Shown piece after piece: positions 8,639 to 12,749 of a stretch of 12,749 bases of DNA (positions are counted from its first letter, which is position 1; every line of letters starts with the position of its first letter). Made by a program: the position numbers and the translations under genes. The stretch spans positions 1-12,749 of the forward strand of contig CAZYCQ010000058.1 of NCBI GenBank assembly GCA_964645535.1, given 5' to 3'. The DNA is from an uncultured archaeon (GTDB lineage Archaea > Asgardarchaeota > Heimdallarchaeia > Heimdallarchaeales > Kariarchaeaceae). The notes under the pieces were generated by a model that did no database searches, was not told the origin of the DNA, and saw nothing but the letters and a program-made list of their open reading frames with translations.

Positions 8639-10771
8639 ATGGAAAACAATTTGCAGGATCTTGACGCAAGACTAAAGCAAATTACAACAGTTGTTTTAGC
8701 TGCAATCTATACAACGATTACTGATCTTGCACCAGATTCCATCACTATCCTTCCCAATGTTGAAATCAGTAGTGATGGATTTGGTCTTTTAATATTGGGA
8801 ACTGGTGCAATGATTTTTGGAAAAGGAATTGGAGCTTCCTCCGCGGGATTAGGGGTATTGTTCAATGAATTCAAAGTAGTGCTTGATGGCTCACCCCTTC
8901 CCAGCATAAATTTGGGACTCATTTTCAGTACCCTCACCTTGTCATTTAGTACTTGGTTGACTGGATTTCTTGAAAATTCAAGAGTCGGAGATTTCATACC
9001 TGAAGAATTTGGAGAGCTCAAATCTAGAAAGGAAATTACCAAGCTGGTGAGGAAAACCTTGGTCTCAATAGTGGGACTAAGTCTTGCAAACAATCTGGTA
9101 TATGCATATGGATCACAATTGATTGAAAATGCCCCCATTGGAACTGCAACTCCATTGTTCCTTGAAAGTTTTCTTAGAGATGCGGTATTGTTGACCTTAG
9201 GACTACCGGTAGTCCTTATAGGATTTGATATGATTGAGATCTATAATGCCAAGAAAGCAAGGATACTTGAAGAGCTCAACAAACAGATTGTCTACAAAAT
9301 AGAGGTCATGAAATCTGCCGAAATCATCAATGTTGAACTACCAGAAACTTCCCTTATTCAAGGAAAATGGACCCCAATCGTGGTTGAAATCATGAATCCC
9401 ACTGAAAGGAAAATAGCATTCAACATTGAAGCAGTTTTTTCAACCAAGTTTACACCTCATATGGACAAAACTCCTGCTTTAGAACCCGGTAAAGGATGGA
9501 GGCAGACATTTTTTGTGTTACCTCGGAAACAGGACAAGGTTATCGGAAGAATTCGTTTTACAGAAAGCAAACCTCCGAAATTCAAATATTCAGATCCCGA
9601 TGAAACAATTATCGAGATTGAAGCCAAGACAAGGAATCCTTCTGGATTTACATCGGCAATTGTCGGCTTGAGTGGCATGAACTTTGGTGTGCTAGGTCTC
9701 TCAGTCATTTGGGAACAGATATTGGAATATGTTTCCAATCCAAACCTGCTTCTCAAGCAAGTTGAGGAAACCATTCAGGTAATCGGAAACGTAATCATTG
9801 CAGAACTTGTCCTGTTTATGGCCCTTATCAGTGCACAGGTTGTCAATCTTCAAAGAAAATCCAAGGAATACACCACCAAAATTAGCTTTTCAAATGATCT
9901 GGATGATCAGGTAATTGAGGAAATTGCTCAAAAAGGATTAAGGGTGATCTTGGCAAAATACGGGAATTTTGCCACAACCTTATTCCGAGGTCTTATTGGA
10001 CTATCAACGATTTTAATAATTGGATTTTTCGGTCGTGAAGCTTTCATTTCAGCAACTCAGCCCAACTATGAAGTTGTGTCCAACAGCCAAGTTGCCTTCA
10101 TTGGAGCTGGAGCTATTGCCATTTGGATCGTTGGATTTCGTGGACTGCAAATCATGAATGAATTAACACAGAAATCTACAGTTGCTACAAGAACAGATGA
10201 TAAGTTCATTCTTGACTTCAAACCATTGGGGGACATTCAATTTGATAAACCTGTTGAGGCAATTGTTCGTGTCCGAAACATTTCAGAATATCCTGGTATC
10301 CGAATAAAATTTGAAAGTGAATCCAGTATTGCCCCACCGATTGTGGAATCTCATATTAGGTCTGGTGAAATCGCCCAGTTCAAAATTGTGATGACTGCTG
10401 TCCAAGGCGCCTCTCGCGAGGTACTTGCACTTGCCTATCCTCTCTTCGACGCAAAGGAAAGATATCTTCCTTTTGAGGAGACAGAACCGATCGCGAGGCA
10501 GGAAATTTTCTTTGAGGCCACGGGACAATCTGCGTTAGGTGTCTCAAAAGATCAGGAGAAAAAACTAAAAACTATTGGGATAATTGTCACAGGATTTACT
10601 GGTATCATTACAGCTTTTGGTCAAATTTTCCAAATCGGATCCGCGGTGGATTTCATCGCAGACAATGCATCAACAATTTTAGGACTTCAGGTTCCTTTCC
10701 TTGCAGCATATTATCGAATATCATCATTTATCAAAAATAGGAAATCCGCACCAGGAGGTATTGAAATATGA
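8639..10771 (+). CDS. Polytopic membrane protein: ECF S-component-like N-terminal domain plus two beta-sandwich/TM-hairpin modules
   Basis: About 11-12 hydrophobic segments. The N-terminus (VVLAAIY..ITILPNVEI..AMIFGKGIGASSAGLGVLFNE) resembles S-component helices 1-3. Two soluble beta-rich segments align with each other. The CDS is secure; the product call is tentative. Confidence 0.8.
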   Translation: MENNLQDLDARLKQITTVVLAAIYTTITDLAPDSITILPNVEISSDGFGLLILGTGAMIFGKGIGASSAGLGVLFNEFKVVLDGSPLPSINLGLIFSTLTLSFSTWLTGFLENSRVGDFIPEEFGELKSRKEITKLVRKTLVSIVGLSLANNLVYAYGSQLIENAPIGTATPLFLESFLRDAVLLTLGLPVVLIGFDMIEIYNAKKARILEELNKQIVYKIEVMKSAEIINVELPETSLIQGKWTPIVVEIMNPTERKIAFNIEAVFSTKFTPHMDKTPALEPGKGWRQTFFVLPRKQDKVIGRIRFTESKPPKFKYSDPDETIIEIEAKTRNPSGFTSAIVGLSGMNFGVLGLSVIWEQILEYVSNPNLLLKQVEETIQVIGNVIIAELVLFMALISAQVVNLQRKSKEYTTKISFSNDLDDQVIEEIAQKGLRVILAKYGNFATTLFRGLIGLSTILIIGFFGREAFISATQPNYEVVSNSQVAFIGAGAIAIWIVGFRGLQIMNELTQKSTVATRTDDKFILDFKPLGDIQFDKPVEAIVRVRNISEYPGIRIKFESESSIAPPIVESHIRSGEIAQFKIVMTAVQGASREVLALAYPLFDAKERYLPFEETEPIARQEIFFEATGQSALGVSKDQEKKLKTIGIIVTGFTGIITAFGQIFQIGSAVDFIADNASTILGLQVPFLAAYYRISSFIKNRKSAPGGIEI
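10753..10759 (+). promoter_or_regulatory. Shine-Dalgarno motif AGGAGGT
   Basis: 8 nt before ATG 10768, which overlaps the upstream stop (ATGA). Confidence 0.75.
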
Positions 10772-12570
10772 AAAAAGATTTGGCATTCGCATTCCTCCTT
10801 CTCCTTTCCCTAATAGCGGGAGGAACTCTAACCTTTTTTGCCTATACACAACCACAAATAAAACTTAATCCTGCTTTTGAAGGTAATGCCCTCACAACAA
10901 CCTCACAATTAAATGAAAAGATAGAAAAGGAACTCTTTGATTTATTTCGAGAATATGAAGGAATTGGCGGGTCTTTGAAACAAGCGATCAAAGAAGCATA
11001 TATCTTTGGTCTTGATGGTCAAGGCAAAGGAATCTATTACCATAATCCTTCAGTACTCGGTGCTCCTCCCAATCTGAAGGAAGATGATGATTACAACCGA
11101 GTAATATCAAAAGAAGGGGCTTCTGTTTATTTTCTACCTTCTGCATTTGAAAACGAGTATGCAGATACATATCTGAATTCGGAAACTGAAACCGAAAACC
11201 CCTTCAGCCATCTCAAAAGTGATGTCTATGAAGATTTCAACAGGTCATCCGTACTATTTGACCTAATGAAGCCCAACCTGAGAAAAGAGATCTCATTCAT
11301 AAGATATGCTTCTAGATCGGGCTTTCTCTTTACCTACCCTTATGTTTCCTATGACAAATCCTATGATTTTACAGAAGACCACTGGTATCAAAGCGGAATT
11401 AGCGGTGCAAAGGATATTGTATTCGCAATCGATACTTCAGGTTCACTGAATGTCTCTCATTTTGAAGCCATCAAAAACGCTACTGGACAGATCATTGATT
11501 CACTTTCATCCACCGATAGGTTCTCCATTGTAGCCTTTTCTGACAGAATCAATAAACTTTCTCCAAGATTACTTGTTGCAACCGAAGCAAACAAGGAATT
11601 GGCTGTCAAGTTCATCGAAAATCTGAGACTTGGAGGTCTCTCTGATCTCAGTGGTGGAACGACAGAGGCACTCAACATTATTTCAAATTTCGGTTATAGA
11701 AGGAATGAACGTATTTTGCTAACTTTTACTGATGGATATCCCAACAGTGGGGTCATCGGTAATGAATCACTTGCAGAAACAATCAACAAAGAGAATGGTG
11801 TTGCTCAAGCCAAACTAGTCTATTTTGGCGTGAATGATAAGGTTAATCTTCCTCTCTTGACATTTCTCGAAAATGCAACTGATGGACAGTTTCAGTTAGC
11901 CAATTCCAGTGACCTCATTCTTGACCTTGTACCACAATATTCTTCAATAATCGGGGAATCCCATACGGAATTCGTAACATGGAGTGCACCAAAGATCGAT
12001 GCCAAAATGAGACGGATAGAAGTTAACCTTTCAATGTCTGTAGTGGTTCAGGATAAGGTAGTAGGAATTCTTAATTTGGAAATCGATCTCAATCCATTCC
12101 TTGAGATCCTAAAAGAAAACATGAATTTTGCAGGTCAGGAAAGCTTTGTAATTACAGTCGGACGTTCTACTTTTGCTCATCTGGACTACCAATTTGCTGA
12201 TTTAAGAGATCCACAATCGACTGATGTACCTAAACAAATTGAAGATATTTTGTTTGAATCGCCTGACTTCGATGGATCCTACAGGTCTTTCCTTAGAGGA
12301 ACCTTTCAACAAGGAATTATTCAGGATATTGATGGAAATCAGTATTACCTCGTCCTTTCAAATCTTGGTCAAACAGGACTCACCTTGGGAACGACAATTC
12401 CAAGAGATGTCTTAATTCCAAAGACAGCCGTTGAAAAGCTTGGAGGATTGGAAGCAACTCCTGAAACATTTACAGGGATGTTGCCTGTTTTTGGCGCATC
12501 AGTTTTTGTAGCTTTGGTAATATTTCTTCTGCGGAAACGACTATTGAAGGAGGTTGATGATAATGAGTGA
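10768..12570 (+). CDS. Alpha2delta/CACHD1-like membrane-anchored protein (VWA_N + VWA inserted in dCache_1)
   Basis: N-terminal signal or anchor. The Cache pocket start (YASRSGFLFTYP..YDFTEDHWY) is followed immediately by a VWA domain (KDIVFAIDTSGS, DRFSIVAFS, LTFTDG). Cache resumes at VTWSAPKID..VVGILNLEIDL, followed by the proximal module (SFVIT..FAHLD..TGLTLGTTIP) and a C-terminal TM helix with RKR. Confidence 0.88.
   Translation: MKKDLAFAFLLLLSLIAGGTLTFFAYTQPQIKLNPAFEGNALTTTSQLNEKIEKELFDLFREYEGIGGSLKQAIKEAYIFGLDGQGKGIYYHNPSVLGAPPNLKEDDDYNRVISKEGASVYFLPSAFENEYADTYLNSETETENPFSHLKSDVYEDFNRSSVLFDLMKPNLRKEISFIRYASRSGFLFTYPYVSYDKSYDFTEDHWYQSGISGAKDIVFAIDTSGSLNVSHFEAIKNATGQIIDSLSSTDRFSIVAFSDRINKLSPRLLVATEANKELAVKFIENLRLGGLSDLSGGTTEALNIISNFGYRRNERILLTFTDGYPNSGVIGNESLAETINKENGVAQAKLVYFGVNDKVNLPLLTFLENATDGQFQLANSSDLILDLVPQYSSIIGESHTEFVTWSAPKIDAKMRRIEVNLSMSVVVQDKVVGILNLEIDLNPFLEILKENMNFAGQESFVITVGRSTFAHLDYQFADLRDPQSTDVPKQIEDILFESPDFDGSYRSFLRGTFQQGIIQDIDGNQYYLVLSNLGQTGLTLGTTIPRDVLIPKTAVEKLGGLEATPETFTGMLPVFGASVFVALVIFLLRKRLLKEVDDNE
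12548..12554 (+). promoter_or_regulatory. Shine-Dalgarno motif AGGAGGT
   Basis: 8 nt before ATG 12563; identical motif and spacing to the previous junction. Confidence 0.75.
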
Positions 12571-12749
12571 AGATCCATTTAAAGGAAACATCCCTGATGA
12601 GGATGAAACAAAGAAAATCCAAGAACAAGTGGAACAGCAGACTGAAGAAATCCAAGAACAAGTGGAACAACAGACTGAAGAAGTCCAAAAACAAATTGAA
12701 GAACAAATCCAAGACCAAGTTCAGGAAAGCCTGCCTCAACCTGAAGTAG
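12563..12749 (+). CDS. Hypothetical protein, N-terminal fragment with acidic Q/E-rich 11-residue repeats; runs off window
   Basis: ATG 12563 overlaps the upstream gene by 8 bp and has a strong SD. It reads MSEDPFKGNIPDEDETKKIQEQVEQQTEEIQEQVEQQTEEVQKQIEEQIQDQVQESLPQPEV with no stop. Confidence 0.85.
   Translation, partial: MSEDPFKGNIPDEDETKKIQEQVEQQTEEIQEQVEQQTEEVQKQIEEQIQDQVQESLPQPEV
12617..12706 (+). repeat. 33-bp in-frame tandem repeat (2 near-identical copies plus a degenerate partial third)
   Basis: ATCCAAGAACAAGTGGAACA[G/A]CAGACTGAAGAA at 12617-12649 and 12650-12682, with one synonymous mismatch. A degenerate copy starts at 12683. Confidence 0.9.

Follow-up and report, generated by a model that had tools for sequence, protein, structure and literature searches.

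The alpha2delta proteins are subunits of calcium channels and the target of gabapentin. Both the insertion of a VWA domain and the nesting of two dCache domains have been dated to about the last ancestor shared by all eukaryotes (LECA), with a bacterial donor (Gumerov et al. 2022, PMC8915833), and proteins with a single VWA-bearing dCache_1 domain (dCache_1[VWA]) have been reported from eukaryotes only, namely from protists and invertebrates (PMC8915833). Here we describe a prokaryotic operon of three genes, A then B then C, all on the plus strand (as are the parts of the operon and the promoter box located below), from a Heimdallarchaeia (Asgard) archaeon whose genome (G000; G labels denote genomes, L labels loci and P labels proteins) is 89% complete. 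The window, by which we mean the whole stretch of DNA analyzed, covers the opening 12,749 bases of a contig 20,023 bases long and ends at a scaffold gap of 100 Ns. The operon is a real, conserved and undescribed variant of an alpha2delta-like system, and no paper reporting an Asgard dCache[VWA] beside a VWA-less paralogue was found in the literature searched. We favor, with somewhat better than even confidence, the view that B and C form a paralogous heterodimeric surface receptor with which A is associated as a membrane subunit. This view builds on the observed gene order, architectures, paralogy and motif states and on a predicted B-C contact; to these we add the ligand, the output and the role of A, which we infer.

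Gene B (10768..12570, 600 aa) encodes a hydrophobic segment (residues 5-23), a dCache_1 domain with an inserted VWA domain, and a transmembrane (TM) helix (570-588) with nearly no cytoplasmic tail. The preliminary description of this DNA had called the product alpha2delta-like, and this proved apt: its sequence matches the VWA and dCache_1 families, a profile of its family retrieves CACHD1 (7e-40) and alpha2delta-1 (2e-39) as the best PDB matches, colinear over Cache-VWA-Cache, and the top 14 Foldseek matches of its ectodomain model (predicted local distance difference test score, pLDDT, 89) are all alpha2delta-1 or CACHD1. The VWA domain (11413..11949) lies in the distal Cache module and has a nearly intact MIDAS (metal-ion-dependent adhesion site), judged from sequence only: the DxSxS element (11431-11445) and the last Asp are kept, as in nearly all B proteins, and Ser replaces the fourth-position Thr in this genus. 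The amino-acid-binding dCache_1AA motif, the N-terminal half of which maps to 11362..11388, is degenerate (Arg to Asp) in B and likewise degenerate in C of the host genome. The motif is intact in B proteins labelled Hodarchaeales, Thorarchaeota and Promethearchaeota and also in short C proteins. WY-x7-KD marks the VWA insertion junction of every prokaryotic B protein scored and of most eukaryotic relatives that were scored, the remainder having x8; because the junction spacing is shared and the sequence nearly identical, we argue for a single VWA insertion event. The presence of the same-junction dCache[VWA] in Heimdall-, Thor- and Loki-group Asgard archaea places at least the insertion step in prokaryotes and contradicts its published LECA dating. 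Two further observations concern VWA proteins: B of G079 (L108, 6519-8306) carries one in-frame TGA, reflecting either a broken gene or a sequencing error, and the host genome also encodes a VIT/ITIH-type VWA surface protein (L003, 6065-7897) whose VWA falls on a different branch from that of B.

The product of C comprises a TM helix, a dCache_1 domain without VWA, a second TM helix, a helical region and two helix-turn-helix (HTH)-like repeats. Comparison of the B and C profiles shows them to be colinear except for the VWA domain (hhalign 100%, E 1.2e-46), identifying C as a VWA-less paralogue of B, and C lies directly 3' of B in all 19 loci with downstream DNA. Furthermore, natural fusions join the two types of ectodomain: P0012 has a tandem TM-dCache[VWA]-dCache-TM arrangement, and P0024 is of the B-C type without the VWA. 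P0012 (L055, 1416-4397) is encoded on a short metagenome contig and ends in a C-terminal zinc ribbon; one neighboring gene gives a weak Thermoplasmatota-like signal, so that its host is possibly a member of the Thermoplasmatota. The predicted complex of the B and C ectodomains scored 0.72, the best of three controls reaching 0.00, and thereby passed a mark that 58 of 80 solved complexes and 2 of 110 mismatched pairs attain; its runs concur on at least 86% of contacts, and the pLDDT of the partner is at least 82. The predicted interface is made by stalk helices and VWA residues are absent from the confident contacts, residues not named there being merely uncertain. This pass may reflect memory of solved dCache dimers or of alpha2delta, and we read it as supporting binding, not as proof of it. 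The preliminary description had the ectodomain docking on the 710-aa product of A, on the third gene product, or on both; the constancy of C and the predicted stalk contact favor the third gene product, whereas A is not constant.

The cytoplasmic tail of C varies by lineage, being absent, a zinc ribbon, a TIR domain, or, in the host order, a helical region with one or two HTH-like repeats. The TIR_2 version is encoded in a Hodarchaeales genome (L092, 11786-13936), and an atlas search with the tail of host C returned nothing. The module extends beyond the Asgard archaea, and we rejected exclusivity to them in view of two bacterial contigs: L090 (10001-15218) carries the B-C pair together with an overlapping gene for a Ser/Thr kinase, which is a candidate for the output partner, and L056 carries a VWA-less B-C fusion. 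As the bacterial copies nest within the Asgard B and C clades of the dCache tree, their sequences suggest transfer out of Asgard archaea. Elsewhere, four Hodarchaeales loci (L039, L040, L041 and L108) share a conserved gene downstream of B-C, whose 490-aa product combines leucine-rich repeats with a Cys/His cluster at its N-terminus. The host genome contains a second dCache gene pair (G000:C54, 9059-12319; frames of 885 and 471 aa), and a similar pair is found in G007 (L044, 841-4917).

Gene A (8639..10771, 710 aa) encodes a protein with about 12 TM helices, in which an S-component fold of the kind known from energy-coupling factor (ECF) transporters is followed by an immunoglobulin-like (Ig) domain, two TM hairpins, a second Ig domain and a final TM hairpin. 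Its model has a mean pLDDT of 61 (about 60-80 in the folded domains). A alone gave no Pfam, NCBIfam or PDB sequence match, and Foldseek with the whole model matched the Ig domains alone. Residues 6-200 (8654..9238) superimpose on the S-component 4hzu_S with Z 15.3 and a root-mean-square deviation (rmsd) of 3.0 over 161 aligned residues, the top 11 structural matches all being S-components; PF07155 matches 6 of 15 A homologues (best 4e-7), with no direct match in G000. The first Ig-like beta-sandwich (residues 224-333, 9308..9637) resembles the Ig domains of transglutaminase and HAP2 (Z about 11, rmsd 2-2.3), and a second is modelled at residues 524-626 (10208..10516). In light of S-component topology, both probably face the cytoplasm. 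The family that A defines, Asgard membrane proteins combining an S-component fold with Ig domains, is undescribed. The preliminary description saw no S4-like helix in the 710-aa protein and held that the partner of B was other than a canonical voltage-gated channel; both statements stand, and no (R/K-x-x)n run was found in A. PF00520 drew no match in G000 (89% complete) and in four relatives of its family. A as a voltage-gated or other channel was rejected because it has an S-component fold and neither an S4 run nor any sequence match in Pfam, NCBIfam or the PDB.

Taking these observations together, we propose that B and C, as membrane-anchored dCache_1 paralogues, would heterodimerize on the cell surface via their stalk helices in the manner of dCache receptors, thereby supplying from two genes the parts list of one alpha2delta/CACHD1 ectodomain, namely a dCache[VWA] and a dCache. 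B would contribute a metal-dependent, protein-binding MIDAS VWA arm and no cytoplasmic output, and C would provide the lineage-variable cytoplasmic output, in the host a long stretch of helices followed by HTH-like repeats. Pairs with intact motifs, of the Hodarchaeales type, probably sense amino acids; in the host genus an adhesion or protein-recognition receptor, or a receptor for another ligand, is likelier because the MIDAS is retained there and the motifs of both proteins have decayed. Thus, of the ligand-responsive membrane complex envisaged in the preliminary description, a receptor-type membrane complex remains likely and a response to amino acids is doubtful here. As for A, gene linkage only suggests that it is probably a partner of B-C, a subunit embedded in the membrane that would bind a small molecule or serve as a scaffold. 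Several observations weigh against this proposal. The amino-acid motif is degenerate in host B and C, the HTH match of the C tail is weak (best E 8.5e-4), and A is absent beside B in 8 loci, with orthologues of A standing solitary in G008, G022 and G086 (the last on a short contig). These 8 loci and the solitary orthologues indicate that A is dispensable for B-C.

Where A does adjoin B, in 9 loci, the A proteins (29-60% identity) constitute a single clade (94/96) confined to one order and two families, and all 9 loci carry the long-tailed C. The conservation of the neighborhood, which the preliminary description had proposed to test, was thus borne out for A, B and C in relatives of the host, for A within this one order. 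Since the B-adjacent A proteins form one clade and 8 B-C loci are without A, A appears to have been recruited to the operon once, in one order, alongside the long-tailed C. Is A then merely a co-transcribed neighbor, functionally unconnected with B-C? Its family is patchily widespread across Asgard archaea without Cache or ECF neighbors and often as two genes, overlaps bearing ribosome-binding sites are common in the host genome, and in G005 A is divergent from B-C on the opposite strand, so that coupling of A to B cannot be obligate. Yet adjacency survived that inversion. All 9 members of the B-adjacent A clade, drawn from two families, retain it even as the rest of their flanking genes change, and we consider the absence of a functional link improbable. 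Several relatives of A are worth recording. In other Asgard families (L096-L102, L104, L105, L107, L109) two adjacent genes, in either order, make up the family, one form having the S-fold plus Ig (about 410 aa) and the other Ig plus TM (about 260-330 aa). A stand-alone 733-aa paralogue in the host genome (L002, 8117-10318; G000:C44) falls in a different clade, whose members have no Cache gene next to them in any locus seen. An A orthologue with a 360-aa charged helical C-terminal extension (L031, 8179-11415) has no B-C nearby.

A more specific link between A and B, toward which the preliminary description pointed, would arise if one of A's outer loops supplied an acidic residue that completed the MIDAS of B, as an Asp of the CaV alpha1 subunit does for alpha2delta, making A the functional counterpart of the channel. 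The retention of DxSxS and the last Asp in B, noted above, would fit such docking, as would the 4-bp A-B overlap retained in 6 loci and two conserved acidic residues of A at positions that are probably outside, the invariant Glu163 in the loop between the last two S-fold helices (8/8) and an acidic residue at 359 (8/8). Nevertheless, the outer loops of A are short, Glu163 is also kept in the solitary orthologue of G008, and the B MIDAS is perfect in the 8 loci without an adjacent A, which argues that its usual ligand is something other than A; we therefore regard this docking as unlikely. The S-component fold also raises the prospect that A is a transporter, solitary or ECF-coupled, with B-C capturing its substrate or regulating uptake, and both the invariant Glu389 in a predicted membrane helix of A and the EcfT/CbiQ-like genes elsewhere in the host genome are in keeping with this. 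ECF S-components topple in the membrane, and tethering of the S domain to Ig domains and six more helices would hinder such movement in A. Moreover, no EcfA or EcfT gene adjoins any A-family gene in the loci inspected, and the S fold serves transporters and receptors alike (PMC11109136), for which reasons we give a transport role little credence.

The shared VWA insertion invites the question of how B and C relate to the two dCache domains of eukaryotes. One scenario, which we rate as possible though clearly short of even odds, is that the B-C pair is a living pre-fusion form of alpha2delta/CACHD1: the VWA would have been inserted in Asgard archaea, B and C would already have been a heterodimer, and eukaryotes would have nested a B-type gene into a C-type gene. 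As the pair here would serve a non-channel S-component-fold protein, the accessory-subunit role would then be older than calcium channels. The other, which we hold to be evenly poised between right and wrong, is that B shares its VWA insertion with eukaryotes while B-C represents an archaeal duplication or side branch, or a lateral gain, the eukaryotic double dCache having arisen separately. Consistent with such a side branch, B groups with C in free dCache trees, and the two dCaches of eukaryotes group together (Shimodaira-Hasegawa approximate likelihood ratio test, SH-aLRT, 88 and 83; ultrafast bootstrap, UFBoot, 92 for the eukaryotic pair), groupings whose support is modest. Of 400 Asgard genomes, just 11 were found to have full-length B and one more a copy cut by a contig end, all of them Heimdallarchaeia; copies occur on bacterial contigs; and P0012, the known fusion, has its domains in tandem and un-nested. 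Against it, the approximately unbiased (AU) test, run on 58 rows and 187 columns under LG+F+G4, rejected none of six trees and so keeps both B with the first eukaryotic dCache (p 0.28) and that grouping together with C and the second (p 0.19). The bacterial copies, moreover, nest inside the Asgard B and C clades, and the VWA tree sets B and the eukaryotic VWAs against the VIT/ITIH type (SH-aLRT 86), as a common origin would allow. Most eukaryotic labels in these trees were assigned by domain architecture and by grouping with named proteins; two of them were checked by contig or sequence features. All named prokaryotic homologues of B are Asgard, and the extended dCache subfamily also takes in proteins of Thermoplasmata and other archaea.

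With respect to layout, the three overlapping open reading frames (ORFs) of the preliminary description were confirmed, A and B overlapping by 4 bp (10768-10771) and B and C by 8 bp (12563-12570). Only the 5' part of C (12563..12749), encoding an acidic repeat N-terminus, lies in the window, the rest extending beyond the scaffold gap to contig position 15099. The two sides of the gap share 55 identical bases, and once it is closed C reads as a single ORF of 793 aa, beyond which lie ChsH2-like and thiolase-like genes in convergent orientation. As C closes to one ORF and is succeeded by convergent genes, the operon has three genes, and the contig extension proposed earlier thus completes gene 3 and adds no further operon genes. 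The acidic low-complexity repeats of C, which probably caused the gap, vary in length within the genus, with about 100-190 aa preceding the first TM helix, and are absent from other genera. The Shine-Dalgarno (SD) sites of B (10753..10759, within the 3' end of A) and C (12548..12554, within the 3' end of B) both read AGGAGGT 8 nt before the ATG, as had been observed. Identity of the two as a special signal was rejected: GGAGG is present in 60 and GAGG or GGAG in 86 of the 103 same-strand 4-bp overlaps of the host genome, and the exact 7-mer is not conserved at orthologous junctions, where the overlaps and SD-like purine runs are retained, so these are ordinary SD sites.

The promoter-like box at 8599..8615, -40 to -24 from gene A, resembles an archaeal B recognition element (BRE)/TATA promoter because of its position near the AT-rich zone of genome-wide upstream regions (A-rich at -35 to -32, T-rich at -29 to -27) and its near-identical recurrence upstream of the G002 orthologue, so that the earlier call is upheld. 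Such a box would imply a leaderless or short-leader transcript of A. A sigma-70 promoter scan, the wrong promoter type for an archaeon, performed at chance level. Upstream of A, 6441-8567 on the plus strand encodes a 708-aa surface protein with a DUF4350-like region, a Big_7 Ig domain and an endonuclease/exonuclease/phosphatase domain, which has several paralogues in the host genome and precedes A in G000, G001 and G002 only. The remainder of the window, on the minus strand, holds a MacB/FtsX-type permease with its ABC ATPase and then an ABC exporter half (1511-4641 and 3-1451), all ordinary, and also an alpha/beta hydrolase and a 189-aa ORF without a family match (4686-5615 and 5727-6296).

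What is new here is the S-component fold and separate history of A, the invariant B-C core, its fusions and its predicted dimer, the copies on bacterial contigs, and the motif decay in the host lineage. The constant VWA-less paralogue next to B offers a concrete two-gene precursor for the dCache nesting step. Furthermore, as the ectodomains are small and soluble, with the motif intact in Hodarchaeales, amino-acid or gabapentinoid binding and heterodimerization are directly testable in them.

Set beside described systems, A shares the six-helix fold of its residues 6-200 with ECF S-components (4hzu_S, ThiT 3rlb) and S-fold (5TMR) receptors (PMC11109136). ECF S-components are small stand-alone membrane proteins of about 20 kDa that bind and transport micronutrients and work with EcfT/EcfA, whereas A has 710 aa, with two Ig domains and six more helices (about 410 aa even when split), and neither partner gene adjoins it in the loci inspected, EcfT-like genes lying elsewhere in the host genome. 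The 5TMR receptors have a signaling domain attached; A has only Ig-like domains and no kinase, GGDEF, methyl-accepting chemotaxis protein (MCP) or phosphatase domain. With bacterial dCache_1AA receptors (PctA, Mlp24, Mlp37; SpoIIE, kinase sensors) B and C have in common the TM-dCache_1-TM layout, a fold match of Z about 21 with an rmsd of about 3 over 231 residues, and, in the Hodarchaeales-type proteins, the intact motif; the Asgard system differs by the apparent paralogue heterodimer, the VWA insertion and a longer extension. Prokaryotic dCache_1 receptors typically carry HAMP and enzymatic or MCP output, which B-C lacks, B being tailless and C having a helical region and weak HTH-like repeats. 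From the eukaryotic single-dCache_1[VWA] proteins B differs in being prokaryotic and always paired with C. The closest likeness is to alpha2delta-1 and CACHD1 (PDB 7vfs_B, 8if3_A, 8s7c_A; PMC8915833), in which the VWA likewise sits in the distal dCache_1 module at the same junction, and with which B also shares the MIDAS, the position of the amino-acid motif split by the VWA, and the same extension before the distal module. Those proteins nest two dCache_1 domains in one chain, whereas B has one and the fusion P0012 has two in tandem; a second, VWA-less dCache is also present in the Asgard system, but un-nested and as the separate gene C. Unlike alpha2delta/CACHD1, B and C each have membrane anchors of their own and C has a cytoplasmic tail. 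A cleaved signal peptide and one C-terminal anchor, GPI or TM, characterize alpha2delta/CACHD1; B has its hydrophobic segments at residues 5-23 and 570-588. The dCache_1AA motif, which alpha2delta/CACHD1 keeps intact in at least one dCache, is degenerate in both B and C of the host, and the partner of alpha2delta, the alpha1 subunit in voltage-gated calcium channels, has no voltage-gated counterpart in the Asgard operon. Given the lack of nesting and of a channel partner and the degenerate motif here, we conclude that the B-C system is built like a split alpha2delta/CACHD1 ectodomain and is not a member of that family.

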